From NCBI GenBank assembly GCA_041661265.1, contig JBAZUT010000008.1:1134-65133 (forward strand): a stretch of DNA of 64,000 nt. The letters are read 5' to 3'. The notes under the pieces were generated by a model. It did no database searches. It saw only the letters and a program-made list of their open reading frames with translations, and was not told where the DNA came from. Positions 3,123 through 41,566 of the stretch are shown piece by piece. Each line of letters starts with the position of its first letter. The first letter of the stretch is position 1. The DNA is from Minisyncoccota bacterium (GTDB taxonomy: Bacteria; Patescibacteriota; Minisyncoccia; JAHIHE01; JAGLIN01). The translations under genes were made by a program, and so were the position numbers.

Positions 3123-3148
3123 GAATAACAATTCCTACTTTTTTTATT
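3121..3148 (+). terminator. Rho-independent terminator (AGGAAT-aaca-ATTCCT plus T-run)
   Basis: Hairpin overlapping the stop codon of 2349..3122, followed by ACTTTTTTTATT. Confidence 0.45.
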
Positions 3149-3787
3149 GGGGAAAAAAGCCTTGGTATCAGCCGGTGTGTGCGCCTGCCTGCTCGCCTCG
3201 CTGTCAGCATCCGGCGAAGCGGGCCGGAGGGTAGCCGTTATGGTTCGACCTGCCTTCGCCAATACTTCGACAAGGCAAGCAGGTTCACCATGACAAATAC
3301 TCACAGCGCTAATTAGTTTCCGTTGAAATAGCGGTAATTTCAGGTGTCTTTGCGAGGCTCATCAGAGCCGTGGCAATCCCTATTCTATGCAAATTATGCT
3401 TTATTATAAGAGTTTTATCGGCTTAGTTTTGGGATTGCTTCGTTGTTGTTACTCCTCGCAATGACGAAATTTATGGCTATTTCATCAGGAATTAATTAGG
3501 TTACTTCGGTACTATGCGAGAGCTTCGTCTTGTCTTTAATGACAAATTTAAACCTTGAAATTAAAGCCGGAATTTGTCCAATCTATCATAAATAACCGAG
3601 AAGCAGTTCTGACGGATCAGTGTGGACTATTCAGCATATAAGCCTGTTTCTTTCTTTTTGATTTTGTGTTATAATGAAGCCAGTTACGATGCGAGCGCGA
3701 AGGTGCGAAATTTTTTGAAGTGGAAGTTTTCAAAGACAAAAATAAAACCGTAATGTTCATTTCCGACCTAATTTATTTTATAATACT

Positions 3788-6958: not shown

Positions 6959-7324
6959 ATGCACGATTTTGATTTAGAAAGAAGAACAACTGAATTCGCG
7001 AAAAGAGTAGTTCGTTTATGCAGATCATTACCGAAAGATTCAATTAACAATAGATTAAGCGGACAGGTTGTCGGTTCGGCTGGTTCCGTCGGCGCAAATT
7101 ATCGTGAAGCAAATGATGCTTTGGGGAAAAAGGACTTTATTCTCAGGCTTAAAATAGCCAGAAAAGAAGCAAAGGAAACGATGCATTGGCTGGAACTGGT
7201 TGAAGAAGCGAATCCTGAGCTGAAACCAAGAATGGCAGAATTAAAACAAGAAGCAACTGAATTGAAGAATATTCTATCAGCAATAATCGGCAAAACGGTA
7301 AAAAATAACAATCCTGTTCGATAA
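6959..7324 (+). CDS. Four-helix-bundle protein (23S rRNA intervening-sequence protein / DGR Avd-like family)
   Basis: Family motif GSAGSVGANYREA. Flanked by short inverted repeats (6890-6935 vs 7340-7375). Confidence 0.6.
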   Translation: MHDFDLERRTTEFAKRVVRLCRSLPKDSINNRLSGQVVGSAGSVGANYREANDALGKKDFILRLKIARKEAKETMHWLELVEEANPELKPRMAELKQEATELKNILSAIIGKTVKNNNPVR

Positions 7325-7430: not shown

Positions 7431-7883
7431 ATGCAGTACGGCGTACCGCAATTTATCGACGTTGAAGACAAGATAGTAGGTCCTTTTACCGGCAAACAAA
7501 CTCTGTATATGATGATCGGAGGAGGATTTTTGATCCTGATCTTCTCGTTCTTCACTCTGGGATTTTTTCTCGTCGCCGTTGTCATCATTCTTCCGCTTAC
7601 GCTGGTTTTCGCTTTCTATAAGCCGAAAGGCATCACCGTTGCCCAATATCTCTCGAATTTCATGAAGTTTTTCTCATCGAATCGTCTTTATGTCTGGAGG
7701 AGGGAGAATGAAGGAAGCTTTTTCAAAACAGTACAGAAGAAGAAAAAGGCTACCGTGGAAGTCGAGGCTAAGACTGTCACAAGAAGCAAGATCCGCGAAC
7801 TTGCCTGGGTTCTCGACACCAGCACTGCGGTGAGCGTTCCCTATGAGGCAAAAGAGAGGCCGGACGAAGCGGTGAGAAGATGA
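7431..7883 (+). CDS. PrgI family (VirB3-like) type IV secretion protein
   Basis: MQYGVPQFIDVEDKIVGPFTGKQTLYMM followed by two TM helices. This is the characteristic PrgI N-terminus and topology. Confidence 0.55.
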   Translation: MQYGVPQFIDVEDKIVGPFTGKQTLYMMIGGGFLILIFSFFTLGFFLVAVVIILPLTLVFAFYKPKGITVAQYLSNFMKFFSSNRLYVWRRENEGSFFKTVQKKKKATVEVEAKTVTRSKIRELAWVLDTSTAVSVPYEAKERPDEAVRR

Positions 7884-7892
7884 TTTTTGGCA

Positions 7893-8344
7893 ACTGAAAA
7901 ATGAAAAGCTAAAAATGAAAAACGACAGAGAAAAATTTAAAAATGAATTTAAGGCGCGAATCTACAACTTCATATTGAATCTGATAAAATTTATCGACCA
8001 CTTACCTTCCGACAGAGCTACGGATATAATCGCCAAACAGCTCCTCAGAAGCGGCACAAGCATCGGCGCAAACTATATCGAAGCGCAAGCGGCAAGCTCA
8101 AAGAAGGACTTTACTAACTTTTTCCACTATTCCTTAAAATCGGCCAATGAAAGCAAGTTCTGGATCGCGATCTTAAGAGATAGCAAAAAGGCTGGAAAAG
8201 AAGAGGCTGAAGCTTTATTGAAAGAGCTTATAGAAATTTCAAACATACTGGGCTCAAGCATTATCACGCTGAAGAACAAAAGATAGTCCATCTTATATAT
8301 AATATTTTTTCGTTTTTCATTTTAAATTTTAAATTTGAAATATG
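7893..8344. repeat. Direct repeat copy 1 (~450 bp) carrying a four-helix-bundle gene, bounded by 17-bp terminal inverted repeats TAAAAATGAAAAACGA
   Basis: Near-identical to 9019..9480. TIRs at 7909-7925 and 8310-8326. The copy ends in the ATG (atgtcaa) of the downstream gene. Confidence 0.8.
7915..8286 (+). CDS. Four-helix-bundle protein (23S rRNA IVS protein / Avd-like family), copy A
   Basis: LLRSGTSIGANYIEAQAASSKKDF...SKFWIAILRD. 99% identical to 9047..9418. Confidence 0.7.
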   Translation: MKNDREKFKNEFKARIYNFILNLIKFIDHLPSDRATDIIAKQLLRSGTSIGANYIEAQAASSKKDFTNFFHYSLKSANESKFWIAILRDSKKAGKEEAEALLKELIEISNILGSSIITLKNKR

Positions 8345-9018: not shown

Positions 9019-9480
9019 TTACGTATTGAAAAATGAAAAGCTAAAAATGAAAAACGACAGAGAAAAATTTAAAAATGAATTTAAGGCGCGAATCTACAAC
9101 TTCATATTGAATCTGATAAAATTCATAGATAACCTGCCCTCCGACAGAGCTACGGATATAATCGCCAAACAGCTCCTCAGAAGCGGCACAAGCATCGGCG
9201 CAAACTATATCGAAGCACAAGCGGCAAGCTCAAAGAAGGACTTTACTAACTTTTTCCACTATTCCTTAAAATCGGCCAATGAAAGCAAGTTCTGGATCGC
9301 GATCTTAAGAGATAGCAAAAAGGCTGGAAAAGAAGAGGCTGAAGCTTTATTGAAAGAGCTTATAGAAATTTCAAACATACTGGGCTCAAGCATTATCACG
9401 CTGAAGAACAAAAGATAGTCCATCTTATATATAATATTTTTTCGTTTTTCATTTTAAATTTTAAATTTGAAATATGTCAA
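9019..9480. repeat. Direct repeat copy 2 (~450 bp) carrying a four-helix-bundle gene, TIR-bounded
   Basis: Near-identical to 7893..8344. TIRs at 9041-9057 and 9442-9458. Confidence 0.8.
9047..9418 (+). CDS. Four-helix-bundle protein (23S rRNA IVS protein / Avd-like family), copy B
   Basis: ORF 9026 uses a TTG start; the ATG at 9047 gives the same 123-aa protein as copy A (one H to N difference). Confidence 0.7.
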   Translation: MKNDREKFKNEFKARIYNFILNLIKFIDNLPSDRATDIIAKQLLRSGTSIGANYIEAQAASSKKDFTNFFHYSLKSANESKFWIAILRDSKKAGKEEAEALLKELIEISNILGSSIITLKNKR

Positions 9481-11396: not shown

Positions 11397-11437
11397 GTTG
11401 TCATCCTGATCCGCCGATTGGCGGAGAAGGATCCCGT
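11397..11437 (+). repeat. Box A repeat (gttgtcatcctgaTCCGCCgattGGCGGAgaaggatcccgt), upstream flank of a GIY-YIG mini-element
   Basis: Identical copy at 13184-13224. Contains a perfect 6-bp stem hairpin. Confidence 0.7.
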
Positions 11438-11503: not shown

Positions 11504-11782
11504 ATGAATAGATATTTTGTATATATAGCTTCAAACAGCAGAAATACAGTTCTATATACCGGTATCACAAATGACATAAATCGAAGAATGTTTCAGCACA
11601 AAAACAAGCTGGTAAAAGGTTTCACAGAAAAATATAATGTTGACAAGTTAGTATATTGCGAAGAGTTTAATTCGCCAGGAGAAGCAATCTCCGCCGAAAA
11701 GAAAATTAAAGGATGGACAAGAAAGAAAAAGATAGATTTGATCAAAAGCATTAATCCCGAATTCGCAGACTTGTTGATATAA
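11504..11782 (+). CDS. GIY-YIG nuclease family protein (small UPF0213/YhbQ-like)
   Basis: YFVYIASNSRNTVLYTGITNDINRRMFQHKN...EEFNSPGEAISAEKKIKGWTRKKK is a canonical GIY...YTG motif. Confidence 0.8.
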   Translation: MNRYFVYIASNSRNTVLYTGITNDINRRMFQHKNKLVKGFTEKYNVDKLVYCEEFNSPGEAISAEKKIKGWTRKKKIDLIKSINPEFADLLI

Positions 11783-13183: not shown

Positions 13184-13379
13184 GTTGTCATCCTGATCCG
13201 CCGATTGGCGGAGAAGGATCCCGTATTTAAATATGGATATCACGTTCAAAAAAAATGGACTCATTGTCATTCTGAACAGAGCGGAGCGAAGTGAAGAATC
13301 CCAGTAGAAAAAAATAGCGCCTTATGTAACGGGACTCTTCGACCCGCTTCGCCGAAGGTTGACAGCGAGGCGAGCGGGC
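13184..13379. repeat. Composite repeat block: box A (13184-13224), inverted box B (13259-13303), inverted box C (13341-13379)
   Basis: All three dispersed-repeat families co-occur here, upstream of the second GIY-YIG gene. Confidence 0.65.
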
Positions 13380-13442
13380 TCAGAGTGACAAGTATTGCAT
13401 AGAAGGGATATTTGCTTTTACAATACCTCAAGACAATATAGT

Positions 13443-13721
13443 ATGAATAAATACTATGTTTATATAGCTTCGAACAGCAGAAATACAGTTTTATATACCG
13501 GCATTACACATAACATAAATCGAAGAATGTTCGAACATAAAAACAAATTAGTTAAAGGTTTTACAGAAAAATATAATGTTGATAAATTAGTGTATTGTGA
13601 AGAATTTAATTCTCCGGGAGAAGCAATTGCCGCCGAAAAGAAAATTAAAGGATGGACAAGAAAGAAAAAGATAGATTTGATCGAAGGGATTAATCCCGAA
13701 TTTGCAGACTTGTTGATATAA
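13443..13721 (+). CDS. GIY-YIG nuclease family protein, second copy (~92% aa identity to 11504..11782)
   Basis: MNKYYVYIASNSRNTVLYTGITHNINRRMFEHKN... ORF 13395 has an upstream extension; the likely start is the ATG at 13443. Confidence 0.8.
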   Translation: MNKYYVYIASNSRNTVLYTGITHNINRRMFEHKNKLVKGFTEKYNVDKLVYCEEFNSPGEAIAAEKKIKGWTRKKKIDLIEGINPEFADLLI

Positions 13722-14985: not shown

Positions 14986-15501
14986 TTATTCCCAATTTAT
15001 TATTACGTGGTCGAATTTCAGCTCATTGCCGTCAGTGTTGTCAGTTTTTTCGTAGATTGCTACGATAGACGTTGTTTCGCCGGATGCGAATGCATATTCA
15101 ACTGGAGAGAACCCAGTTGTCTTTGTTGGGTTCTGGATATCATCCTTTGACTCAACTCCGTCAAAATTCCATCCAAGGAATTTGTATCCTGCAATGTCTG
15201 TTGCCGATACTTTGACAAGAGGCCTGCGATGTGCATCTATTGATACGGTCTTATCTTTCGTATCGATACCGTTTATAAATGCTTTTATTGCGTCCAAGCT
15301 GTTCAGGTCCTGTTTCTCATACGAGAAACCGACAAATGCGCCTTCGGCTGCTGTTTTGCTGTTTAATACAGTGGGCATGGATGTGGGATTTGTAAACGTC
15401 CCCAGCGCCGTTAGTACGGCCGCTGCTATGAGCGCTACGGCCACGGTGCCAATCATCCATGTCGGAATCACTATTCCTCTCTTACGTATTGTTTCGTTCA
15501 T
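14986..15501 (-). CDS. Hypothetical signal-anchored secreted protein
   Basis: N-terminal TM helix VIPTWMIGTVAVALIAAAVLTAL. RBS AAGGAGCGTGAAAAAAAATG resembles those of the neighbouring lipoprotein genes. Confidence 0.4.
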   Translation of the reverse strand: MNETIRKRGIVIPTWMIGTVAVALIAAAVLTALGTFTNPTSMPTVLNSKTAAEGAFVGFSYEKQDLNSLDAIKAFINGIDTKDKTVSIDAHRRPLVKVSATDIAGYKFLGWNFDGVESKDDIQNPTKTTGFSPVEYAFASGETTSIVAIYEKTDNTDGNELKFDHVIINWE

Positions 15502-15771
15502 TTTTTTTCACGCTCCTTGTGTTTTCTTTCTTTATCACCTCCTGTTTCCAGCAAGGTTTTTTAGCGGGTATGTAACAGTCTAAAGTCCTTAAAGTCTAAA
15601 GTTTCTAAAGCAAAGCTTTCGGCTTTATGGATATTTTGACTTTCGACTATTTTTATACCCTTCAAAAAACCATGCTGGATTTACTTGTTGTCGGATTTGT
15701 TCTGTGAACTGTAAATGAGCTAACTGGATATAATAGCATAAATATGACATTTGTCAATCCCCTTTATCCAC

Positions 15772-15890
15772 AGCGCAAGAGGTCTGCACCTCGTCTATGA
15801 GGTCAGTCCTCTGAAGCGCCCAGCATCGGATCTTTTTGATCCTTTGCAATCGGAGGACCGATTTCCTGCTTGGAGGTGCGGATTGCTTTG
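15772..15890. repeat. Degenerate copy of the ~270-nt structured dispersed repeat (compensatory stem changes versus the full copies)
   Basis: GAGGTCTGCACCTC here vs CAAGGTCTGCACCTTG, and GAGGTCAGTCCTC vs CAAGATCAGATCCTTG. Both stems are preserved. Confidence 0.5.
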
Positions 15891-16059
15891 TAATATTCCC
15901 AGATCGCACTTCTTTTGTATATAAAATTGTTAACGAACGACATTTTTCAGCAAAAGCTGAAACTCTCTTCTCTACCATCAAAATAGCAAGAAATCCACGT
16001 TGAGTCAATTTTTGCAGAGTTCGTATTGTGGACTTCCTGTGGAGAAGATGGGGAATAAA

Positions 16060-16095
16060 GATAAAAAAAGAGTATATGTTATACTCTTCAATTGC
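16060..16095 (-). terminator. Rho-independent terminator (GAAGAGTATA-aca-TATACTCTT plus T7) downstream of 16100..16594
   Basis: Read on the minus strand. Confidence 0.45.
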
Positions 16096-16099
16096 AATG

Positions 16100-16594
16100 C
16101 TATTTATATATCGTTGTTGAACTAAAAACAAATTCTGCCCTGTTTCCCGCGCTATCGATCGCACTTATTTTTGATATGCAGGATTCCCCGTTTGAAACCT
16201 TTTTGCAAACTTCATAAAGCGGATCTGTTTTTATCATCGTAAAGAGGGCCCAATCACCGTTTTTGAAAGGTGTTTCCGTCACTCCATCTCCATTATTGTC
16301 GTACAGATAAGTTGCAGGCGGATTTGGCACGATAGAGTCACTGAAGTCCAAGACGAAGGATTTATCTTCTTCCAGAACGATAGCATTTCCGAAATAATCT
16401 CTAGTCGCTAAGGTTCTCGGATTGCTCGTATTTATATTTACCTCTCCTATTTTTGGCTGGATGACAAATGTTTTAGCCGTCATGTCGGATGTTTTATTTG
16501 CCTCTTCTGCCGGGATGGCGCTTGATGCGTATCCTGAAAATGATGCAAATATAGCAATTAGAACTGCCATAATTACAATTGCTTTAAATCTCAT
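16100..16594 (-). CDS. Hypothetical secreted protein (signal peptide)
   Basis: MRFKAIVIMAVLIAIFASFSGYASSA. Shares a conserved promoter/leader (TTGACA-N17-TATGCT ... aaaaaggacgtgaaagaATG) with the lipoprotein paralogs. Confidence 0.45.
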   Translation of the reverse strand: MRFKAIVIMAVLIAIFASFSGYASSAIPAEEANKTSDMTAKTFVIQPKIGEVNINTSNPRTLATRDYFGNAIVLEEDKSFVLDFSDSIVPNPPATYLYDNNGDGVTETPFKNGDWALFTMIKTDPLYEVCKKVSNGESCISKISAIDSAGNRAEFVFSSTTIYK

Positions 16595-16758
16595 TCTTTC
16601 ACGTCCTTTTTGTTTTATATTTTAAGGATTGATTATTCTTTCCTTAATGTCATCAGCATAAATTGTTTTTCTAAATTTGTCAAAGGTTGATGATACGGGA
16701 TTTGTTAATAATGTTTAAAAATGTCCTAAAGTTAAAAAAATAGGGATTTATTATCCCT

Positions 16759-17397
16759 TTATTGATAGAACCTTATATTGATATTTACTCTATAGAGTTC
16801 ATCATTAGCGCTTTTGTCTGCCATCCAGACGGTGGATTTTCTCTGTGGGCCCTTCACTCCTTCTACAGAACCGCCTCTATTCCATTTGCCGCCATTTCCA
16901 GACTCAACTGTGAGTTTGACCACACCTTGCAGATCACGGAGATATGAATTAACTGTCAGTATCTTATTGTCTCCGGAAATTTCCGCTTTGAAATTATCCA
17001 GGACTAGATTGTCATCAACTGCAATTGCGATGTTTTGCAGTTTATTTTTTGGGACAGTAAAATAAACCTCCACTACACCATTGCTTCTGAAACTGGCATA
17101 TTTTTGAACATACGCTACATTATTTTCGTAGCTTCTATTGTTGTATGCACCGACCAGGGGCTCTTTTACGGGGAGGCCTTTGACAGTAATTCCGTTGAGA
17201 GTATTTCCTTCAATTTTTTTCGAATCATCTAAACTGTTGGAATCTGTGATTCCAGTATTTTCGGAAATTGGCTGTTTGATGGCCGTTTCTGCTACTTTCG
17301 GCGCTATTGTCTCCGGACCTTTGTCCGACACGCATCCCGAGATCAACAAAGCTCCCGCAAGCAGAAATACTGCCAATATTTTCAATTTTATTCTCAT
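16759..17397 (-). CDS. Lipoprotein, paralog 1 (variable surface lipoprotein)
   Basis: MRIKLKILAVFLLAGALLISGC has a lipobox. ORF 16759..17442 starts at an upstream TTG/ATG; the likely start is at 17397. Confidence 0.5.
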   Translation of the reverse strand: MRIKLKILAVFLLAGALLISGCVSDKGPETIAPKVAETAIKQPISENTGITDSNSLDDSKKIEGNTLNGITVKGLPVKEPLVGAYNNRSYENNVAYVQKYASFRSNGVVEVYFTVPKNKLQNIAIAVDDNLVLDNFKAEISGDNKILTVNSYLRDLQGVVKLTVESGNGGKWNRGGSVEGVKGPQRKSTVWMADKSANDELYRVNINIRFYQ

Positions 17398-17523
17398 TCT
17401 TTCACGTCCTTTTTGTTTTGTTTTCCATATTTCAAGGATCAATTTGTCTTATCCTCAATGCCACCAGCATAAAGTTTTTTTTGAGATTTGTCAAGAATTG
17501 AGGCATCTATTGTCCCATTACTA

Positions 17524-17797
17524 AAAAGTCCCCTCTCGAGAGGGGCAGGGGTGTGTGAGTTGGGAAGCGCGGCTAGGTCGCTTTGAGTTAATTTGATAAA
17601 CAAAAAAACACAAATCTCTCTGAGGTTCAAGGTCTGCACCTTGTCCACAAGGTCAGATCCTTGAAGAACCGGCGAAGACATCGAACAACTTCATTTATTA
17701 TCGGAGGATCCGACTTCTTTGAGGGGGTGCGGACCTCTTTTGTTCTCGGACTTCCCTGTTCCTTCCACACAAGAGGAAGAGGCCAGGTGGATTTGGA
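17524..17797. repeat. Structured dispersed repeat, copy 1 (~270 nt; begins with the perfect palindrome CCCCTCTCGAGAGGGG)
   Basis: Near-identical core to 20218-20490 and 21054-21262. Confidence 0.75.
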
Positions 17798-17818
17798 ATC
17801 AGGGCCCTCGGATCTCGA

Positions 17819-18661
17819 TCAGACCAGATATTTTTTCATTATTTCTTTGTAATTTTTGCAGAAATCAGTCACGAAAGATTGGTCGGGAAAGAAATTCTGA
17901 AGATCATATGCGAGCTTTCTTTCATCGACCTCCTTTTCGATTTTGTTTTTCAGGACTTGTTTCAGTTCATTCTCGTCTTTGATGGAGAAAGCCTTTTCAA
18001 GGACAGCAAAGTCAGGACTGATGCCTTTGCTGAGATACCAGAATAGGTCATAGAAGTCGCGTCCCTTTATGTCGATAACATTGTTTTTTCCCTTGAACCA
18101 TTTTCGTCCCAGTATCGCCATGATCTTTCCGGTCATCAGAAATTTTAGGGTGTAATTTTTGGCAAGAAAATTGAAGCCGAATGAAGAGACTGGGGAAAGC
18201 TCGGTTTCAAATACTTCGAATTGGCTGATCTCCGGCTCGATTTTGACATAGAGAAAATCGCTTTTTTCTCCATAAATAAGACCAAGATCTTTCAGGATCG
18301 GGAATTTGAGATAGAGCCTGTTTTTTCCCTGGACCCGGAAGGAAGGAACTATAAGGAAATTGTTTTCAAAATATGCAGAAAGTGCCGTGCCCATTTTTTC
18401 CAGATCCAATGTCCGGAAATCAGATTCTTCGAGGTCAAAGTCCAGGTCTTCGGAAAGTCGCGACAAGCCATAGCAAATGCGAAGGCACGATCCGCCGGTG
18501 AAGATGAAGTTTTTATATTCTTTGCTGTTATATATATAGCTCAGAACTGGAAATTGCAGGACCTCTTTAAGGAAGTTTGCGATCACAAAATCAGGAAGCC
18601 CGGCTCTCTTTTTCTCCTGCACCAGGGTTTTCATGGTCTCTTTAAGCATAATATTGTTCAT
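17819..18661 (-). CDS. abiEii: AbiEii/AbiGii family nucleotidyltransferase toxin (type IV toxin-antitoxin / abortive infection)
   Basis: FIFTGGSCLRICYGLSRLSEDLDFDL matches the DUF1814 GGtaL...R.SeDlDf motif. Confidence 0.7.
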   Translation of the reverse strand: MNNIMLKETMKTLVQEKKRAGLPDFVIANFLKEVLQFPVLSYIYNSKEYKNFIFTGGSCLRICYGLSRLSEDLDFDLEESDFRTLDLEKMGTALSAYFENNFLIVPSFRVQGKNRLYLKFPILKDLGLIYGEKSDFLYVKIEPEISQFEVFETELSPVSSFGFNFLAKNYTLKFLMTGKIMAILGRKWFKGKNNVIDIKGRDFYDLFWYLSKGISPDFAVLEKAFSIKDENELKQVLKNKIEKEVDERKLAYDLQNFFPDQSFVTDFCKNYKEIMKKYLV

Positions 18662-19280
18662 TAATGAGTTTAAATAGTGTATTCATGCGTTTGTTGTTGC
18701 ATATTTTTATGTATTCTTCCATTTTTTTGATGTCGGAAGCGGAAATATTTTCCCAGTTGAGGCGCAGATCTTCCAGCGCTTCTCGGTTTATTTCACGCTT
18801 GCTCAAAAAGCGAAGATAGAGAAAATCAAACAGAGCTTTTGCTTTTTCGGCTTCAAGAACGGGCGCGCCTTGAAAATATTTGACGGAATATCCGCAAAAA
18901 AGCTTCGGGCTTATTGAGTAATAGCGGAAGCTTCCGAGCTTGTTCACAATTTCCCTTCCTGTTTTTACGGTCATTGAAGTCAGGGCGTTGGCCGGTTCGC
19001 TCAGGATCTGATATTTGGAAAGCGTATATTCCATTGAGAGATAGGATGGCATCACCATTTGATTGGCGATGTATTCGAGATAGGAGTTCTTGTCTCCTTC
19101 CATGCGGAATCGGTCGCTTAGCACGTATAGGCCGTTTTTCAGGCCAATGAGTTTCCCGTTTTTAAGCCAATATTTGATGTTGGCATTCAGCGATTCAGGG
19201 TCGCTTTCAAGCGATCGAAGCGTATTTTTGCTGAAAACAAGGAACTTTTGGCTTATTTTCTCAAAATCATTATAGTTCAT
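18642..19280 (-). CDS. abiEi: Putative AbiEi-like antitoxin / transcriptional regulator
   Basis: Lies immediately upstream of and overlaps the AbiEii gene by 20 nt. Size is about 210 aa. Assigned mainly by operon context. Confidence 0.45.
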   Translation of the reverse strand: MNYNDFEKISQKFLVFSKNTLRSLESDPESLNANIKYWLKNGKLIGLKNGLYVLSDRFRMEGDKNSYLEYIANQMVMPSYLSMEYTLSKYQILSEPANALTSMTVKTGREIVNKLGSFRYYSISPKLFCGYSVKYFQGAPVLEAEKAKALFDFLYLRFLSKREINREALEDLRLNWENISASDIKKMEEYIKICNNKRMNTLFKLINEQYYA

Positions 19281-19442
19281 TATATATGTTTATGATATAG
19301 TATAATAATTATACCAAAACGTGAACGAATGTCAAGAGCTTGGAATTCTGTTAAGTTGAAATTTTGGTGAGTGCACTCACCTAATTCTTGCGAAGTGGCT
19401 GGAGTCGTAAAGATTAAAACTGTCATAAAAAAGAGACGGCAT

Positions 19443-20012
19443 TTAAGTCGTCTTTATTAGTTTTTCCGGATGTCTTGCAGTTGGATTTGGTTGAGCGGGC
19501 GGAGCATTAACTTTTGTAATTTCAACGCTCCATTCCCATTCTTTTATGGCATCGATCCCTGGGCAATTCCCTCCGCCTGCTTCTGTTATACATTTTTCCA
19601 TCATAACTGTTTTAGAACTCTTTTTGTTTCTTAGTTTAAACTGATATTCCAGATAGAACCTGGCATTATCTGGTTTCAACTCAGAAACAACAGTAATAGC
19701 TTTGCCAGCGTATACTTTGATTTTAAGATCTCCGAGATCTAATGTTTGTGGTTGCGTCGAGTCTTCAAAGAAATCATACCAGTTATCTGACTTAAAAACT
19801 TCTATTTTTGATTGCGCATCGCTGTTCTTTGGCGTTTCAGTAACTCCCGGACCGACGTTTCCGGAGTTGCCCGAACTTCCCGAACTGCCAGGACTTGCCT
19901 CACTAATTGCTACTTCTGTTACTTTTGGCGATATTGTTCCCGGGTCTTTATCCGACACGCATCCCGAGATCAACAAAGCTCCCGCAAGCAGAAATATTGC
20001 CAATATTTTCAT
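19443..20012 (-). CDS. Lipoprotein, paralog 2 (Gly/Ser-rich linker, divergent mature domain)
   Basis: MKILAIFLLAGALLISGC has a lipobox. Same upstream leader as 16759 paralog. Contains a GSSGSSGNSGN linker. Confidence 0.5.
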   Translation of the reverse strand: MKILAIFLLAGALLISGCVSDKDPGTISPKVTEVAISEASPGSSGSSGNSGNVGPGVTETPKNSDAQSKIEVFKSDNWYDFFEDSTQPQTLDLGDLKIKVYAGKAITVVSELKPDNARFYLEYQFKLRNKKSSKTVMMEKCITEAGGGNCPGIDAIKEWEWSVEITKVNAPPAQPNPTARHPEKLIKTT

Positions 20013-20217
20013 TCTTATTTTCACTTTTTCACATCCTTTTTGTTTTGTTTTCCATATTTTAAGGATCAATTTGTCTTATCCTCAATGCGAACATCATAAA
20101 GTGTTTTCTGGGTTTTGCAAACACTATCGGCTGGAAAGTGGAGGGTAGAATGTGGAAAGTGGCAAATTGTTGAAGAATCTTTTGATATTGCTCCATGACC
20201 ATATTGTTCTATTATTA

Positions 20218-20490
20218 ATAATCCCCTCTTGAGAGGGGCAGGGGTGTGTGAGTTGGGAAGCGCGGCTAGGTCGCTTTGAGTTAATTTGATAAACAAAAGA
20301 ACGCAAATCTCTCTCAGGTTCAAGGTCTGCACCTTGTCCACAAGATCAGATCCTTGAAGAACCGGCGAAGACATCGAACAACTTCATTAATTATCGGAGG
20401 ATCCGACCTCCTGCTGGAGGTGCGGACCTCCTTCGTCCCCGGATCTCCCCGCTCTTTCTGCACAAGATGAGGAGACCTGGTGGATTTGAG
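20218..20490. repeat. Structured dispersed repeat, copy 2
   Basis: Sequence identity to copy 1 and copy 3. Confidence 0.75.
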
Positions 20491-20513
20491 AATAAACTGT
20501 ATTGCAATAACTT

Positions 20514-20984
20514 TTGAGTTGTATTAGAATGAAGATAATAAATGAAATATTCTTACTTTCAAAACAGGCCATGAATATCGATGAAAACAAATTAAAAGAA
20601 ATACTAAAGGAGCAAAGTGATGATTTCAAGCGGCATGTGAGCGTGATTTCGGAAGATTTTCATTCGAGCGTGAAGCTGATCTCTGAACAATATAGTTCAA
20701 TCAAAGAAACGCTGGATCGTCATACTGAGATACTAGATTCTCACTCCGAAACACTTGAATCGCATGGTAGAATACTTGAATCGCATACCAAAACACTCGA
20801 ATCTCACACAAGAACTCTTGATTTTCACACTGAGATGATAGGCTCACTGAAGGAAGATGTGGAAATCATCAAAACTGATGTGGAGTTTGTGAAAAACTCT
20901 CTCAAGAAAAAGGTTGATGCTGAAGAGTTTTCGGTTTTGGAAAGAAGAGTCGCTGCACTGGAGTCAAAGGTCAGGGCGAGATAG
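20514..20984 (+). CDS. Coiled-coil protein with tandem heptad repeats (TEILDSH/SETLESH/GRILESH/TKTLESH/TRTLDFH)
   Basis: ORF with degenerate 7-aa repeats. The likely true start is at 20571 (MNIDENK). Confidence 0.4.
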   Translation: MSCIRMKIINEIFLLSKQAMNIDENKLKEILKEQSDDFKRHVSVISEDFHSSVKLISEQYSSIKETLDRHTEILDSHSETLESHGRILESHTKTLESHTRTLDFHTEMIGSLKEDVEIIKTDVEFVKNSLKKKVDAEEFSVLERRVAALESKVRAR

Positions 20985-21053
20985 AGTTTATCGTTTTAGA
21001 AATATGCCACACTTCCGGTTGAGGGGTGGTTTTTTGTTTTGTTGTGACATCTC

Positions 21054-21262
21054 ATCCCTCCTTTATGAAAAGGAGGGTTAGGGTGGATTTGAATTAATCC
21101 GGTAAGCAAAAGAACGCAAATCTCTCTCAGGTTCAAGGTCTGCACCTTGTCCACAAGATCAGATCCTTGAAGAACCGGCGAAGACATCGAACAACTTCAT
21201 TAATTATCGGAGGATCCGATCTCCTGCTGGAGGTGCGGACCTCCTTCGTCCTCGGACCCCTC
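21054..21262. repeat. Structured dispersed repeat, copy 3 (alternative head hairpin CCCTCCTTT-atgaaa-AGGAGGG)
   Basis: Core identical to copies 1 and 2. The head hairpin differs in sequence but keeps its structure. Confidence 0.7.
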
Positions 21263-21380
21263 CATCCACTTTGTCCAAGACAGACAGACTATGTGGGCTT
21301 GGATCGATCTGAAGATAAGGGAAATTGACACTCGTTTTTTGTGGAGTATAATAGAAATATAATTTGAATAGGTTATTGCA

Positions 21381-21626
21381 ATGCTTTCGGACAAAGATGT
21401 TCAAAAACTGGTAAAAGTTTTCGCGACTCGCGATGAGGTGATTTCAAAGAGCGAATTGGGTGAATTAAAACGCGATTTCGGCAATCTTCAATTGTCTATT
21501 GACTCTTATGCCAAGAGGGCTGATGCTTATTTTCAGGAAATGGCGATGTTTTCACATAAGATCGATCGTCAGGAAAGATGGATCCAGGAAATTGCGAAAA
21601 AAATCGGAATGAAATTAGATTATTGA
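21381..21626 (+). CDS. Small hypothetical coiled-coil protein downstream of repeat copy 3
   Basis: 81-aa ORF, no recognisable motif. Confidence 0.3.
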   Translation: MLSDKDVQKLVKVFATRDEVISKSELGELKRDFGNLQLSIDSYAKRADAYFQEMAMFSHKIDRQERWIQEIAKKIGMKLDY

Positions 21627-21726
21627 TCAAAAAATATTTTTTGATTTTACTTCCTACTTCCTTTTTATAAGTGAAGTTTTTTCATTTTGACCGGGAATAT
21701 CGCACGAAATAAAAAAAGAAACAAGT

Positions 21727-22029
21727 TTATTGTTTCTTGTAAGCTCTTTCTATTTCGCTTTCCCTTATCAATTGAAATCCCAGATTCATGAGCCTGGTTC
21801 CGACCGAGAGCATCAAAATGCCATAAACGAGCAAGCCGTTCAGGTTGAGCAGTTCGGGAGGGATTTGCATTCCTTGGGCGACCTGGGCGCCATTTTTAAA
21901 CAGTGGCGCGAGGTTTTGCTTCCCGCTATACACGTCATTTACGTATAATCCCATCATTATCACGATCACAAGACCTATGCCGATGAATGTCCATCCGGTT
22001 TTTTTCTTCAGGGAAACTGTGTTAACCAT
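21727..22029 (-). CDS. Small hypothetical membrane protein (2 TM)
   Basis: GWTFIGIGLVIVIMMGLYV and LLVYGILMLSVG. Confidence 0.3.
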   Translation of the reverse strand: MVNTVSLKKKTGWTFIGIGLVIVIMMGLYVNDVYSGKQNLAPLFKNGAQVAQGMQIPPELLNLNGLLVYGILMLSVGTRLMNLGFQLIRESEIERAYKKQ

Positions 22030-22319
22030 TTCTATACCTCCGATCTGAAAATCCTGAATAAAGAATAGTATATTATGGGATAAAAGTAAATGAGCCGGGA
22101 TATTGACAAAAACTATATTATATGCTATGCTTTTATGTTTGCTGTGCTAATTAAACAGCAAATATTCAGGTTCGTTGAAAAATAATCTTTCGGTTAAAAT
22201 AGCGCTAAATGGTTTTTGGCGTTGTTTCAACCGAAGGATTCACAAGAATTCCATCGGTCCGATAGTATACGAACAAGAATAAAAGTAATGAATAGTTAAG
22301 GAGAAAAAGAAGAAAACAG

Positions 22320-22943
22320 GTGATTAACATGGTAGATGCAAAAACAATAGGTATCGGAGCGGTAATAGTGCTGGTTATACTGGCATTCAGCGGATGGAGC
22401 ATGTATATCGGACTGAACAATGCAAGACTCGACGCGGACAAGGCAAGAAGTGATGTCGCTGTCAAAATGAAAGACAGGCATGATGTCATACCTGCATTTA
22501 TAAATGCTGCCGAAGCCAGTTTCAAGGCTCAGGATAAGATTCTTACAAACTATGCGAAGAACAGAGAAGGTTTGGATCGGGCAGAGAAACTATATAACGA
22601 AGCTCGTAACAATTCAGATGATCCTGACGCGCCTGTAAAGATGGCTGAGGCTATCAGAGAGGCACAGAATAGTTTTGAAGGCATAATCATAAATGCCCGC
22701 CAGGAATCGGTACCTGATGTAGATATTGAGGCGCTTATTCGGCTACAGAATGAAATTTCTGTGAGGCAGAATGTGATCTCGGGTTTCTGGCTCGACTACA
22801 ATGCGGTTGTAAACGAATATAACAAAAAGGTTACAAACCCGCCTTCATCGATCGTGGCATCTTTCTTTGGCTTCAAGACAAGAAAGACATTTGAAGCCAC
22901 TGCCGAAGAAGAGGCAATGCCAGACACAAAGATAAACGTTTAA
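22320..22943 (+). CDS. lemA: LemA family protein
   Basis: N-terminal TM helix, then YIGLNNARLDADKARSDVAVKMKDRHDVIPAFINAAE, a LemA-like pattern. Confidence 0.65.
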   Translation: MINMVDAKTIGIGAVIVLVILAFSGWSMYIGLNNARLDADKARSDVAVKMKDRHDVIPAFINAAEASFKAQDKILTNYAKNREGLDRAEKLYNEARNNSDDPDAPVKMAEAIREAQNSFEGIIINARQESVPDVDIEALIRLQNEISVRQNVISGFWLDYNAVVNEYNKKVTNPPSSIVASFFGFKTRKTFEATAEEEAMPDTKINV

Positions 22944-22987
22944 TCGGATTGGAGAACCCAATCCCTTTATTTTAAAGAGGTGAAGTT

Positions 22988-23839
22988 ATGAATTTTGACA
23001 GAGATTACGGAAATGAAAGAAAGGGAAAACCTTCGAAAATAGTGATTTCGGCTATAATAGCAATGATCTTGGTCGGGCTGTATTTATTAGTGCCTGCGAC
23101 AAGCAAAGCAATATATGCACCCCCCAGAGAGAACATCACAGTCGTAACCAATCTGCCATATCCTCCTTTTGAGGACTTGGCAGGCGGTGAATTCACCGGT
23201 TTGGATATCGATATTGCATATAAATTCGGGGACAAATACAACACAAGAGTGATTGTGACGGACGTTCCTGAATTTGATGACATATTCCTGGCATTGAAAG
23301 ACGGAAAGGCGGATATGGCTATTTCGGCCATTACGATCAGTTCCGGCAATTCCAGCAGAAGCAATTTATCCGATTTTTCAATTGGATATTACAATGCTTC
23401 ACAGGCAGTGCTAGCTATGGAAAATGGAAAGTTCAAGATCGCAAACGAATTATTCGCGGGCGATTTCAAGGGCATGAGGGTGGGATATCAGGGATCCACC
23501 ACAAATGAAGGCTGGGCAGCGGCAAATCTGTTCGGAAAAGTAGATCTTGCCGGCAATGTATCCTTCGGCGATGTCGACAGCGGATTACAGATATTGAGAT
23601 CCGGCGATATTGACGGGATCATTTTGGATGAACCGGCCGCACGCGCTCTTGAAAAGAAAAATCCCGGAATGGTGGTTGCTGGAGTTATCAACAACACTCA
23701 AGAGGAATATGGGATAGCCGTGAAGAAAGGCGATCCGAAAAAACTGCTCCCGAAGATCAACGAGCTCATCAAAGAGCTGAAAGGGAACGGGGAGTATGAG
23801 AAATTGATCAAGAAGCACTTCGGAGGCGGTCAGAAATGA
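22988..23839 (+). CDS. ABC transporter substrate-binding protein, family 3 (polar amino-acid type)
   Basis: Signal anchor, then DIDIAYKFGDKYNTRVIVTDVPEFDDIFLALKDGKADMAISAITIS...ILDEPAA. Confidence 0.65.
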   Translation: MNFDRDYGNERKGKPSKIVISAIIAMILVGLYLLVPATSKAIYAPPRENITVVTNLPYPPFEDLAGGEFTGLDIDIAYKFGDKYNTRVIVTDVPEFDDIFLALKDGKADMAISAITISSGNSSRSNLSDFSIGYYNASQAVLAMENGKFKIANELFAGDFKGMRVGYQGSTTNEGWAAANLFGKVDLAGNVSFGDVDSGLQILRSGDIDGIILDEPAARALEKKNPGMVVAGVINNTQEEYGIAVKKGDPKKLLPKINELIKELKGNGEYEKLIKKHFGGGQK

Positions 23840-24867
23840 AAACGATAACCGCATATCTGATGCTGTTCCTTGTCGTTTCTTTGTCGATTCCTATGGTGTT
23901 GGCACAAGAAAATACGGTCCCGAGGGGAAAGTATATATACGATGAAAGAGGAACCTTGAGCATTCAAGATACTCTCTTTCTGAGTTCTTCCTTATGGAAG
24001 CTGGATGCGAAAACGGGATATCAAACCGTGTATGTGTTTCCAAAGGACAATCTTACCGAAAGGGAAATGGCGAAGTGGTTCAATGATCACGGAGTGGGAA
24101 ATGCCAAAACCGAAACCGGTTTAGCTTTCTTCATATTTCCGGACAATTCCGTTTTCGGAATGATCGGAAGAAAACATGATCGGATCGGAACACCATATCT
24201 GTCGTATTTTTCGGCAAGATCTCTTGCTGGCATAGAGAATGACAGAACAAGGGCTCTGAACAATCTGACGTTTGATCTGAAGAAAGAATTGGGAGTTTCA
24301 GCGACATACGAGAGAGCATATAATACCGGAAAGGCGGTGGCGGATAACTTTCACATAATCATGGGCTGGGCATTTATGATCTCTTTGTTTGTGTTGCTAT
24401 ACAAACAGAAAGATGGCTACCAGTCGAGTGATCTTGTTTTGCCAGCGATCATTTTGGTCCTCACACTTTTCGCGGTGGGCATAATGTCGCTTGGCTCAAA
24501 TGACAGTTTGCCGTCATACACAAAAGAATTCGGCATAACAACTTCCACGAAGCTGAAAGACCACGAATATACAGAACGTCATTGCAGCGGATCTGGTGAT
24601 GACGAGATTTGCTGGTGGGACCGTCATACGGAATACTTCAATTATGTGACCATAACATCATATGATTTTAAGGTCTATAATTACCGGTTCTACAGCAAAG
24701 ACAATAAATGGGCATGGGAACGGAAGGAAGGAGAACTACTTGGATTGGATGTGTACATTCAAGGAAATTCAGTCTCATCGGTAGAATTACCGGTCAGAGA
24801 TAATTCGGGCGGTCGCACGGAGTATATGGGAACCTGGATTAAGACGACGAACGTAACAAAAAAATAA
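23836..24867 (+). CDS. TPM-domain (YgcG/TLP18.3-like) membrane protein
   Basis: Signal peptide, then YIYDERGTLSIQDTLFLSSSLWKLDAKTGYQTVYVF...GMIGRKHDRIG and a later TM helix. Confidence 0.45.
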   Translation: MKTITAYLMLFLVVSLSIPMVLAQENTVPRGKYIYDERGTLSIQDTLFLSSSLWKLDAKTGYQTVYVFPKDNLTEREMAKWFNDHGVGNAKTETGLAFFIFPDNSVFGMIGRKHDRIGTPYLSYFSARSLAGIENDRTRALNNLTFDLKKELGVSATYERAYNTGKAVADNFHIIMGWAFMISLFVLLYKQKDGYQSSDLVLPAIILVLTLFAVGIMSLGSNDSLPSYTKEFGITTSTKLKDHEYTERHCSGSGDDEICWWDRHTEYFNYVTITSYDFKVYNYRFYSKDNKWAWERKEGELLGLDVYIQGNSVSSVELPVRDNSGGRTEYMGTWIKTTNVTKK

Positions 24868-24986
24868 AGGCAGTGAACGCACTGTCCTTTTTTTATGGAT
24901 AAAAAGTCCCCTCTCGAGAGGGGCAGGGGTGTGTGGGTTGGGAAGCGAGGCCAGACCTTGGAAATAACGGAAAATCATTGGCAGAG

Positions 24987-25073
24987 CGGAGAGGGTGGGA
25001 TTTGAACCCACGGTCCCGATGAAGAGACGCTGGTTTTCGAAACCAGTACGTTAAACCGCTCTGTCACCTCTCC
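24987..25073 (-). tRNA. tRNA-Ser (anticodon CGA), class II with long variable arm, no encoded CCA
   Basis: Hand-folded: acceptor stem GGAGAGG/CCTCTCC, anticodon stem-loop CTGGT-TTCGAAA-ACCAG, T-arm GTGGG-TTCAAAT-CCCAC. Confidence 0.75.
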
Positions 25074-25176
25074 GCTCTGTCAATGATTGTTGAGAATTTT
25101 ATATAAACAAGCAACTAGGTTTGCAGATTACCATATTGGAGGATTTTCCGCCTTCGGCGGACCAGTCGCAGGCCGG

Positions 25177-25266
25177 CGAAACCAGTACGTTAAACCCTGT
25201 CTTCCGGCCCGCTTCGCCGAAGGCTGACAGCGAGGCGAGCATGCAGGCGCTCTGTCACCTCTCCGG
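25177..25266 (-). pseudogene. Disrupted duplicate of the tRNA-Ser 5' half with a ~50-nt box C repeat inserted in the D-loop region
   Basis: GGAGAGGTGACAGAGC [insert] GGTTTAACGTACTGGTTTCG, then divergence. A box-A-like hairpin TCCGCCGAAGGCGGA lies adjacent at 25141-25172. Confidence 0.55.
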
Positions 25267-25595
25267 AATTGGGATGTAGAAAGTCGAAAGTGGCAGGTAG
25301 AAAGAACAATATCAAACTACTTACTACTAATCCACTTTATCACATAATGAAAAAAAGAAAAGAGTATTTACTCTTTATCTTATCGGTGAAAGCCTTTCTC
25401 TGAATACTTTTAAATTGTGGATAAAAGTATCATATATTCTTTTTAGGCGGGGCCTTTTGTCCCCGGCTTTCGCGGATCTTATCAAAATATCATTTATTTC
25501 GAATTCTTTTTCCGCTGGCATTCTATCATCCTCTTTCTGAGCTCTAGTCTATAGGGAAAAATGAACTAAGTCAATAATGTGGTGGCAAAAAAAAC

Positions 25596-31924: not shown

Positions 31925-32860
31925 ATGTCAATAGATATCATAAGAAAGCTGAAAACCGAATTTCTTGAATATCTGGAAATTGAAAAGAACAGATCTCAGC
32001 TCACCATCAGGAACTATGATCACTATCTTGAGTATTTCTTGGATTGGGCCGAAGTGAAGCGCGCGGAGGAAATAAATGCTGATCTGGTGAGAAAATTCAG
32101 GCTTTTTTTGAATCGCAGGAAGGAAAATAACCAGAAGGAGCTGAAAAAGGTGACGCAGGATTATTATATAATAGCCATCAGAGGCTTTTTGAACTATCTT
32201 GCAAAGCGCGACATTAAGACGCTTCCGAGCGAAAAGATCGAACTTGGAAAAACACAAGACAGGGAGGTTGAGTTCCTTGAGCCTTTGGAGGTCGAGAAGC
32301 TTCTTTCCGTTGTTGCTGGCGAGGATCTTTCGAGTGCGCGGGACCGGGCCATACTGTCGCTTCTTTTCTCAACCGGGCTTCGAGTTTCCGAGCTTACTGG
32401 GCTGAATCGGGACAGTATGAATTTCGAAAGCGGAGAGTTTCCGGTCAGGGGAAAAGGCGGGAAGATCAGGCTGGTTTTCATCTCAGATAGCGCAAAAAAA
32501 ATAATCCGAGATTACCTGGAAAAGAGAAAGGACGTCGAGCCCGCTCTTTTTGTGAGGATCAGGGATAGAAAGTCCAAGGAGAAGGATAACGAAGCAAAAG
32601 GCGCGGGTTTGAGACTGACCCCGAGAAGCGTGCAGAGGATCGTCAGGAAATATGCCATAAGGGCGGGAATAGTGAAGAAAGTGACTCCGCATACTCTGAG
32701 GCACAGCTTTGCAACGGATCTTCTTTTCAACGGCGCGGATATCCGGAGCGTGCAGACCATGCTCGGACATTCAAGCATAACGACGACCCAGATATATACG
32801 CATATAACGAACAAGCAACTCAAGGATGTGTATAGAAAATATCACTCCAAAGGCGGATGA
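31925..32860 (+). CDS. xerC: Site-specific tyrosine recombinase, XerC/XerD family
   Basis: C-terminal catalytic region HTLRHSFATDLLFNGADIRSVQTMLGHSSITTTQIYTHI, of R...HxxR...Y type. Confidence 0.85.
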   Translation: MSIDIIRKLKTEFLEYLEIEKNRSQLTIRNYDHYLEYFLDWAEVKRAEEINADLVRKFRLFLNRRKENNQKELKKVTQDYYIIAIRGFLNYLAKRDIKTLPSEKIELGKTQDREVEFLEPLEVEKLLSVVAGEDLSSARDRAILSLLFSTGLRVSELTGLNRDSMNFESGEFPVRGKGGKIRLVFISDSAKKIIRDYLEKRKDVEPALFVRIRDRKSKEKDNEAKGAGLRLTPRSVQRIVRKYAIRAGIVKKVTPHTLRHSFATDLLFNGADIRSVQTMLGHSSITTTQIYTHITNKQLKDVYRKYHSKGG

Positions 32861-39782: not shown

Positions 39783-39797
39783 CGCAGGGCCTGCGTT

Positions 39798-41504: not shown

Positions 41505-41566
41505 TTGTGATCGGAAGCGCTGCTTTTTGGGTAAATAACGATCCTTAATATATTTTTGTCCGACAG

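Follow-up and report, generated by a model that had tools for sequence, protein, structure and literature searches.

The BOX elements of Streptococcus pneumoniae and the ERIC and Correia sequences are small modular intergenic repeats, and the latter two have defined terminal inverted repeats and target duplications. The csRNAs of Streptococcus and LhrC1-5 of Listeria, multicopy small-RNA families whose C-rich motifs are anti-Shine-Dalgarno in type, are about 90 to 150 nt long, have a clear regulated promoter and a terminator, and are conserved across species. To our knowledge, members of the candidate phyla radiation (CPR)/Patescibacteria have small genomes with few repeats, and their noncoding elements are almost undescribed. 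As a comparison system we used the repetitive extragenic palindromic (REP) doublets (REPINs) and bacterial interspersed mosaic elements (BIMEs) of Proteobacteria (Bertels and Rainey, 2011; PMC3116915; PMC3337134). Here, we analyzed a 64,000-nt stretch of DNA from a Minisyncoccota bacterium (GCA_041661265.1, contig JBAZUT010000008.1), referred to as the window, which carries four copies of an intergenic repeat, termed c0 (15765-15900), c1 (17524-17797), c2 (20217-20490), and c3 (about 21050-21305), all on the minus strand. The best-supported description of this repeat is a lineage-restricted, modular, palindrome-rich intergenic element of the REP-doublet, BIME, or BOX kind that was multiplied locally.

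An unbiased direct-repeat search returned a 272-nt family at 17524-17795, 20217-20488 (89% identical), and 21030-21301 (69% ungapped), and BLAST placed c2 and c3 at 95% identity across 175 nt. A three-block pattern, CCGCACC..CCTCCGA..GGTGCAGACC, had exactly four matches, all on the minus strand and including the degenerate copy at 15781-15881, and found no match in 100 shuffled sequences. The covariance model R1, which was built on the minus strand, scored c1 at 163 bits, c2 at 166 bits, c3 at 168 bits, and c0 at 101 bits. A preliminary description of this region had counted three full copies and one degenerate copy. That count is confirmed, with the correction that c3 extends to about 21300 and does not end at 21262. 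These data confirm that the repeat family is real and nonrandom.

Read 5' to 3' on the minus strand, a full copy comprises a variable hairpin region of ~50 nt, a palindrome termed H2, a spacer of ~37 nt with a small hairpin, a second palindrome termed H3, and an A/T-rich linker. The linker precedes a head module of about 55 to 65 nt, which contains a G+C hairpin and ends in CCCCUCUCGAGAGGGG. In the ~110-nt core, two imperfect ~36-nt palindromes, H2 (GGAGGUCCGCACCUCC-AGCA-GGAGGUCGGAUCCUCC) and H3 (CAAGGAUCUGAUCUUG-UGGA-CAAGGUGCAGACCUUG), form a dyad-symmetric doublet. Each palindrome is in turn made of two 16-nt units in which a 5-nt arm, six bases, and the complementary arm follow one another (GGAGG-N6-CCTCC or CAAGG-N6-CCTTG), and the paired 16-bp palindromes are spaced 20 bp from center to center. 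Within the window, GGAGG-N6-CCTCC units are confined to the repeats, and none of 100 shuffles reached the observed count. H3 resembles the reverse complement of H2, and it is because of this dyad symmetry that the minus-strand model R1 also matches the plus strand of all copies.

This organization can be set beside that of REPINs and BIMEs. Here, as there, two imperfect ~36-nt palindromes stand inverted around a short spacer and can fold locally or as a single long hairpin, and the repeats are intergenic, species specific, and present or absent between relatives. H2 and H3 (36 nt) are related inverted palindromes of the sort that characterizes a REPIN, as the opposite-strand matches of R1 (44 to 51 bits) illustrate. 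Once transcribed, REPIN and BIME repeats can serve as transcript-end or stability elements. Unlike the tens to hundreds of dispersed REPIN or BIME copies, however, the four copies found here are clustered, no copy contains GTAG, and the window has no RAYT gene. Each palindrome is also itself a pair of 16-nt hairpin units, extra modules are present (5' hairpin, linker, and head), and the host belongs to the CPR. With BOX, ERIC, and Correia elements the repeat shares modular recombined parts, a stable predicted structure, an intergenic position beside surface- or virulence-type genes, and likely cotranscription. It differs from them in having no sequence relation and far fewer copies, and terminal inverted repeats and target duplications are not consistent. 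A miniature inverted-repeat transposable element was considered and rejected, as terminal inverted repeats, a target duplication, and common termini were not found together and the copies end at different points. Taken together, the overall resemblance is closest to REP-doublet or BOX-type repeats, and the element is not a canonical REP or REPIN.

We then consider how widely the repeat occurs. The contig that holds the window is 83.6 kb long and comes from JGI sample 3300014208. Its PNPase is 100% identical to a protein that NCBI assigns to Candidatus Paceibacterota. Assemblies in ENA and Logan contain this strain as well, and the organism is also represented in ERZ27249449, SRR6484324, and SRR18595301. 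With Rfam 15 at the gathering threshold, the whole window yielded two tRNAs only, and at an E value of ≤10 the region 15400-25400 gave no match on any copy; the repeat therefore belongs to no Rfam family, in line with the preliminary description, which had recognized none. Across 185,579 GTDB species genomes, JGI metagenomes, and IMG/VR, the three-block DNA pattern returned chance G+C-rich matches and contigs of the same organism, and diverged relatives could escape such scans because 24 exact bases are required. Searches with blastn against plasmids and phages found nothing. Among 5.8 billion proteins and, in a second search, 1.84 billion representatives, a spurious open reading frame (ORF) called on the repeat retrieved only itself. 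Relatives were reached through PNPase and through homologues of geneA, which encodes a 137-amino-acid (aa) coiled-coil protein (20572-20984, plus strand); none of them (L038, L039, and L042-L050) had a copy by BLAST or covariance model. The repeat is thus narrowly distributed, and across these searches it was found in this organism only.

A repeat pair around the geneA homologue of L042 (e1/e2) was tried as a diverged homologue and rejected, since its alignment scores equal those of shuffles. As a separate observation, the metagenome assembly GCA_040961635.1 has its own unrelated intergenic repeat of ~100 to 215 nt, with 74 to 86% identity between copies, at L042 2030-2260 and 3660-3900 and at L045 6520-6619, 8666-8765, and 10612-10711. 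Its ends are inverted repeats of 16 nt (GTTCAATTTCCGTCAG / CCAGACGGAAATCAAAC), and a short motif, ACCAGACGAAWTTCRAAC, recurs in it. In L042, this repeat flanks the geneA homologue and lies upstream of a lipoprotein gene, a layout that parallels the order c3, geneA, c2, and lipoprotein gene in the window and that L049 does not have.

The four copies differ in the modules that they carry. The best-formed copy is c2, in which the 5' hairpin (20446-20490) is followed by H2 (20396-20431, with two perfect GGAGG-N6-CCTCC units), the middle hairpin (20367-20385), H3 (20319-20358), the linker (20270-20318), and the head module (20215-20269), whose hairpin (20223-20238) has a weak tail, ATTATTAA. Located 22 nt past the abiEii stop codon, c1 has the same parts: a 5' variable hairpin (17741-17797), H2 (17703-17738), the small middle hairpin (17674-17692), H3 (17626-17665), the A/T-rich linker (17587-17625), and the head module (17522-17586), whose hairpin (17530-17545) runs into ACTTTTTA. 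The core and linker of c3 (21082-21256) are 95% identical to those of c2, and its 5' part is its own. As first reported, the head hairpin of c3 is replaced, in this case by a different but related one at 21057-21078 (CCCTCCTTTATGAAAAGGAGGG, with arms CCCTCCTTT..AAAGGAGGG) that lacks a T-run. The degenerate c0 consists of the core alone, with about 62% identity to the other copies; it has neither linker nor head and keeps the blocks TCCGCACCTCC, TCCTCCGAT, and GGTGCAGACCT as well as a hairpin at the H3 position.

Head modules also occur alone on the minus strand. A 55-nt subfamily unites the heads of c1 and c2 with a third site at 24900-24954, which is 95% identical to the c1 head and has its hairpin at 24908-24923, again followed by ACTTTTTA. 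This site is 31 nt downstream of tRNA-Ser(CGA) (24986-25073, minus strand) and lies between convergent genes. A short head (CCCCTCTTGAGAGGGG TTAGGGGTGTGT) is found at 286-313, about 15 nt past the end of a plus-strand rsmA/ksgA-like ORF. Both solitary heads had been listed in the preliminary description; a third one placed at 20223 is the head of c2 itself. With heads alone at two sites, a core alone in c0, and a different head in c3, the element is modular.

Sequence identity is distributed unevenly among the copies. Both c1 and c2 are parts of a larger duplicated module. Their 5' hairpin parts are 75% identical; the 3' half of H2, the linker, and the head are 97% identical; and, after a gapped stretch, identity is 93 to 100% across promoter, 5' untranslated region (UTR), and signal peptide. 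The unstructured linker and head (97 to 100% between c1 and c2) are conserved as well as the hairpins are, and the mature proteins beside these two copies are unrelated. What c3 has in common with c2 is the 175-nt tract only. This mosaic fits gene conversion and module shuffling, and for that reason the high identity of the core is in itself no evidence of purifying selection. Neither c0 nor c3 has flanking homology to the other copies, and the core has therefore spread independently of the lipoprotein genes; the copies stand in three unrelated flanking contexts.

Conversion and duplication might even be the whole explanation. In that case, the repeat would have no function of its own, would have arisen neutrally as segments of a hypervariable island were duplicated, and would owe its identity to recent duplication and gene conversion only. 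The larger duplicated 5' module of c1 and c2, the equal conservation of structured and unstructured parts, and the position of all copies inside 5.5 kb agree with this. However, c0 and c3 share the core despite having no homologous flanks, c0 keeps its blocks and hairpin at about 62% identity where neighboring proteins are at 13 to 23%, and nested palindromes in this number are unlikely to be accidental, as the shuffles indicate. We regard a purely neutral origin as highly improbable.

The lipoprotein genes at 16759-17397 and 19443-20033 (minus strand) were themselves found to share near-identical promoters, 5'UTRs, and lipobox signal peptides (93 to 100%) in front of unrelated mature domains. 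This pattern suggests that a 5' module was shuffled or converted onto different surface-protein bodies.

The nearest relative covered, L039 (PNPase 94% identical; about 81% DNA identity), aligns on both flanks of c3, of which about 205 to 215 nt are absent, an absence observed directly. In L039, the orthologue of an 81-aa gene and its promoter are followed directly by CCAAATCCATCCTCA and a c3-type head hairpin, and a single CCAAATCCATCC motif is kept beside that hairpin. In the window, the segment that L039 lacks is bracketed by an imperfect direct repeat of about 12 nt at the borders of c3, ATCCAAGCCCAC (about 21291-21302) and TTCAAATCCACC (about 21083-21094), and the 5' borders of c1 and c2 also bear a CAAATCCACC motif. 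At the edges of the core, and not at the ends of the missing segment, lies an imperfect inverted repeat of 14 nt (AGGTCCGCACCT / AGGTGCAGACCT). Two events could account for the difference between the genomes, insertion into a preferred short site or loss of the segment between short repeats. Independently, the boundary direct repeat was examined as a remnant of a tRNA-Ser 3' end (att), which found no support, with a best score of 12 against a background of 11. In our model, the element would have multiplied locally in the manner of REP-doublet (REPIN/BIME) or BOX-type repeats, being duplicated, converted, and gained or lost at a short repeat.

We next address whether the repeat is a structured RNA under selection, as had been claimed from covarying stem pairs. 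Two fold types are possible, local hairpins or a single long dyad hairpin, and the minimum-free-energy choice varies by copy; the long dyad hairpin is that of c1 and c3 on the minus strand and of c0 on the plus strand. Folding energies on the minus and plus strands were -83 and -96 kcal/mol for c1, -99 and -97 for c2, -91 and -87 for c3, and -54 and -55 for c0, and neither folding energy nor G-U counts gave a consistent strand preference across the four copies. The minus strand of c2 folds at -99.6 kcal/mol (z score of -3.3), and in H3 the minus-strand U-G pairs are C-A mismatches on the plus strand (alignment columns 101/114), which leans toward the minus strand.

Covariation was tested on a four-copy core alignment with the local-hairpin structure and 500 shuffles and with RNAalifold on c1 to c3. 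The reported stem changes in c0, CAAGG/CCTTG to GAGG/CCTC, are present in the sequence, but only two pairs changed on both sides, a number matched by 83 of 500 shuffles in a set of four sequences, three of them near-identical, that has almost no power either way. The RNAalifold covariation term was +0.36 kcal/mol, i.e., no support. The hairpin at the H3 position of c0 has one clean compensatory pair (U-A to C-G) and one U-G to C-G change, with two extra compensatory pairs once the 5' strand is shifted by 1 base, and the small hairpin of c0 is GGAUC/GAUCC compared to GAAG/CUUC in the other copies. The apical half of H2, however, is disrupted by uncompensated changes at three pairs in c1 and one in c3. 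Since the changes sit in palindromes, where symmetric change has DNA-level causes too, the step from covariation to a selected RNA, as originally put, does not hold; such arm changes would be equally expected for single-stranded-DNA hairpins or for the half-sites of a dimeric DNA-binding protein. The covariation is not statistically significant, and the claim of covariation should not be retained. A peptide-coding reading is also unlikely, because the shared ORF MSSPVLQGSDLVDKVQTLNLREICV lacks a ribosome-binding site and contains a stop in c0, which supports a noncoding element.

The surroundings of the repeat bear on its function. Minus-strand genes between 15 and 20.1 kb encode a membrane protein (14986-15501), secreted proteins or lipoproteins (16100-16594, 16759-17397, and 19443-20033), and an AbiEi/AbiEii toxin-antitoxin pair (17819-19280). 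A type IV secretion system (T4SS)-like cluster lies upstream of this island, and tRNA-Ser(CGA) and PNPase lie downstream. Three of the four copies adjoin secreted-protein or lipoprotein genes. Copy c0 is 210 nt past a lipoprotein gene and directly ahead of the next gene's promoter, TTGACA-16-TATTAT (15730-15757), and c3 occupies the interval from the geneA end to the 81-aa gene (21381-21626, plus strand), whose promoter is perfect and follows c3. A cis-regulatory leader of the surface-protein genes had been one of two functions first proposed. However, between the repeat and each lipoprotein gene lie a canonical promoter (TTGACA-17-TATGCT) and an AAGGA ribosome-binding site; such promoters, at 17466-17494 and 16655-16683, are downstream of the repeat. 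The paralogue at 16594 has the same promoter and no repeat upstream. Because the promoter intervenes and also serves a repeat-less paralogue, and with no minus-strand gene downstream of c3, a 5' leader is unlikely.

The head hairpin resembles a terminator at some sites. On the minus strand, it is followed by the T-run ACTTTTTA in c1 and after tRNA-Ser, so that the T-run noted in the preliminary description holds there; c2 has a weaker tail and c3 has none. At 38 nt upstream of c2 is a minus-strand promoter-like site, TTGAAA-16-TATTAT (20535-20562), with 10 of 12 consensus matches, divergent from a plus-strand promoter-like site of geneA (20502-20530). Canonical promoters elsewhere have 12 of 12 matches (19308-19335 and 21325-21352). 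In c1, then, a good terminator-like hairpin goes with no promoter, and in c2 a 10/12 promoter-like site goes with a weakly tailed hairpin.

A small RNA gene was the other function first proposed, and we evaluated it in the form of paralogous, trans-acting minus-strand genes of about 250 to 300 nt that end at the head terminator. In this scenario, CCUCC blocks (CACCUCC and GAUCCUCCGAU) would mimic the 3' end of 16S rRNA and pair with the Shine-Dalgarno (SD) sequences of targets, e.g., the neighboring lipoprotein mRNAs. The element is indeed noncoding and foldable, c1 has the terminator-like head, and the minus strand of c2 has both a promoter-like site and a terminator-like hairpin and folds well (z score of -3.3). 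The two best-conserved blocks in common with c0 contain CCTCC, with those arms retained at 10 of 10 bases compared to 2 of 10 for GGAGG; c0 keeps the H3 hairpin with its compensatory pairs, one clean and two after a 1-nt shift; and three copies are beside secreted-protein or lipoprotein genes. A 10-nt complement (UUCAAGGAUC versus GAUCCUUGAA) is present in the 5'UTR of the lipoprotein gene adjoining c1. However, c1 and c3 lack a canonical promoter in a genome that clearly uses such promoters, c3 lacks the T-run, H2 is broken in c1 and c3, and the plus strand folds equally well. In addition, covariation was not significant, no homologue was found outside the organism, and c3 is absent in a close relative. 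Duplex energies against the lipoprotein 5'UTRs were no better than those against shuffled UTRs (best z score of -1.65). We consider such small RNA genes, the main rival to our own reading, doubtful and do not regard the repeat as a conserved, free-standing RNA gene family.

The same comparison can be made with described RNAs. Like csRNAs and LhrC, the copies are paralogues close together with lipoprotein or surface-gene neighbors, CCUCC motifs are the best conserved, and the 3' hairpin is terminator-like. Unlike them, a promoter-like site is present at c2 only, CCUCC is mostly paired with GGAGG, and no homologues were found elsewhere. A more specific proposal is that the copies make up a multicopy small-RNA family, the first to be described in a Patescibacteria/CPR bacterium, in which the CACCUCC and GAUCCUCC blocks would titrate or mask the SD sites of surface-lipoprotein mRNAs and the nested GGAGG/CCUCC hairpins would form a switch hiding or exposing these anti-SD blocks. 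We judge this quite improbable.

To our description of the repeat as a REP-doublet- or BOX-like element we add a proposed role in minus-strand transcripts. It is suggested by the T-run behind the terminator-like head of c1, by the recurrence of that head module downstream of tRNA-Ser, and by the promoter-like site ahead of c2. Once transcribed on the minus strand, the repeat would act either as the tail of an upstream cassette (c1 after abiEii and c0 after a lipoprotein gene) or as its own short transcript (c2). The transcript would fold as stacked hairpins and end at the head terminator. It might thereby mark or stabilize transcript 3' ends and shield separately promoted surface-protein cassettes from read-through. 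We put forward this transcript-end or insulator module as a tentative possibility, somewhat short of an even chance.

A role at the DNA level was also considered. The four 16-bp palindromes could be operators for a dimeric protein, or the repeat could be a recombination site that exchanges cassettes, namely, geneA, the lipoprotein gene plus AbiE, and the lipoprotein genes. Full dyad symmetry with no strand preference, the 20-bp spacing of paired palindromes, and the symmetric arm changes of c0, which are expected for half-sites of a dimer, are compatible with a DNA-level role. Copies also stand at cassette boundaries with promoters on both sides, geneA is bracketed by c2 and c3, and a presence/absence difference occurs at a short direct repeat. 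In the Paceibacterota-like L042, the geneA homologue is likewise bracketed by a different direct repeat of ~215 nt, but that repeat is not detectably homologous and not well folded, and in L049, which has a third geneA homologue, no repeats flank the gene. The neighborhood of the copies offers no candidate regulator or recombinase; the sole tyrosine recombinase, at 31925-32860, is XerC/D-like, 10 kb away, and syntenic in relatives. Retention of one arm per H2 unit in c0 does not suit a palindromic operator, either. Taken together, we think a DNA-level role unlikely.

Integron attC sites and clusters of attC sites lacking integrases (CALIN) offer a further parallel. There, too, structured array-specific repeats occur at the borders of small cassettes, including a toxin-antitoxin pair, and structure seems to be preserved more than sequence. 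The repeat here is ~270 nt long compared to 57 to 141 nt for attC, no integron integrase is present, and the genes have mixed orientation and their own promoters. Neither R'' (RYYYAAC) nor R' (GTTRRRY) boxes were found on either strand of any copy, and attC was rejected.

Several observations weigh against a REP-doublet- or BOX-like repeat that acts at transcript ends. The observed copy number is low, with four copies, all inside 5.5 kb of the 83.6-kb contig, and BLAST, covariance model, and pattern found no others elsewhere in the window, in a further 10 kb of flanking DNA, or among the remaining contigs of the JGI sample. The copies share no common termini, and no clear terminal repeats bound the ~215-nt segment that L039 lacks; the empty site there could be a deletion instead of an unoccupied target. 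None of the scanned proteins of the window is a transposase, RAYT, reverse transcriptase, or integron integrase, and no Y1 transposase was found among them or in the L033 and L038 gene tables. Because c2 lies between a divergent lipoprotein gene and geneA, it is not in a 3'-end position, and c3 has neither a T-run nor a convincing minus-strand promoter. Lastly, c0 has kept 10 of 10 bases of its CCTCC arms and 2 of 10 of the GGAGG partner arms, an asymmetry that points to a sequence-specific single-strand function and not a pure hairpin function.

These nested-palindrome repeats at the borders of surface-protein and toxin-antitoxin cassettes, near a tRNA-Ser hotspot, illustrate the buildup and reshuffling of a hypervariable surface-gene island. 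Examples of RNA-based regulation are rare in CPR/Patescibacteria, and the repeat would add one if it were transcribed and had functional anti-SD-like blocks. On present evidence, it is a single-lineage curiosity whose general kind is already known, and not a new kind of system.

The tRNA-Ser locus has features of its own. Just upstream of the intact tRNA-Ser(CGA), a remnant of a tRNA-Ser 5' half (GGAGAGGTGACAGAGCG ... GGTTTAACGTACTGGTTTCG) at 25130-25265 (minus strand) is interrupted within its D-loop by some 50 nt of inserted G+C-rich sequence. L039 has the same remnant and insertion (7703-7785, 88% identical), followed by a different tRNA-Ser(CGA) and a decayed 3' half, and it lacks the LemA, SBP_bac_3, and 343-aa genes (22320-24867). 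The comparison identifies the tRNA-Ser locus as a rearrangement hotspot. The G+C-rich insertion has an inverted second copy (3181-3228 compared to 25203-25250, 94% over 48 nt) in a 660-nt intergenic region (3123-3787). It had no Rfam match and may be a small mobile element.

Tandem repeats were observed within geneA itself. The gene and its homologues, including L049 3981-4169, contain 21-nt (7-aa, HT.ILDS-type) tandem repeats whose number varies between homologues of 102 to 151 aa, and PADLOC gave a weak match to the C-terminal region of ZorA (E value of 1.6e-5).

Other duplications were noted elsewhere in the window. Among the T4SS-like genes are three paralogous ORFs of ~120 to 130 aa (6959-7324, 7915-8286, and 9026-9418), two of them 97% identical at the DNA level. 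They may resemble the four-helix-bundle "23S rRNA intervening sequence protein" type. The same cluster contains two 100% identical copies of a 41-nt hairpin sequence (GTTGTCATCCTGATCCGCCGATTGGCGGAGAAGGATCCCGT) at 11397-11437 and 13184-13224, each upstream of a paralogous small ORF (11504-11782 and 13395-13721). Finally, three tandem paralogous membrane-protein genes of about 550 to 570 aa occupy 38085-43210 and are PMT_2-like according to the L038 gene table. Two 300-nt stretches in them (39841-40140 and 41559-41858) are 100% identical, which suggests very recent gene conversion.

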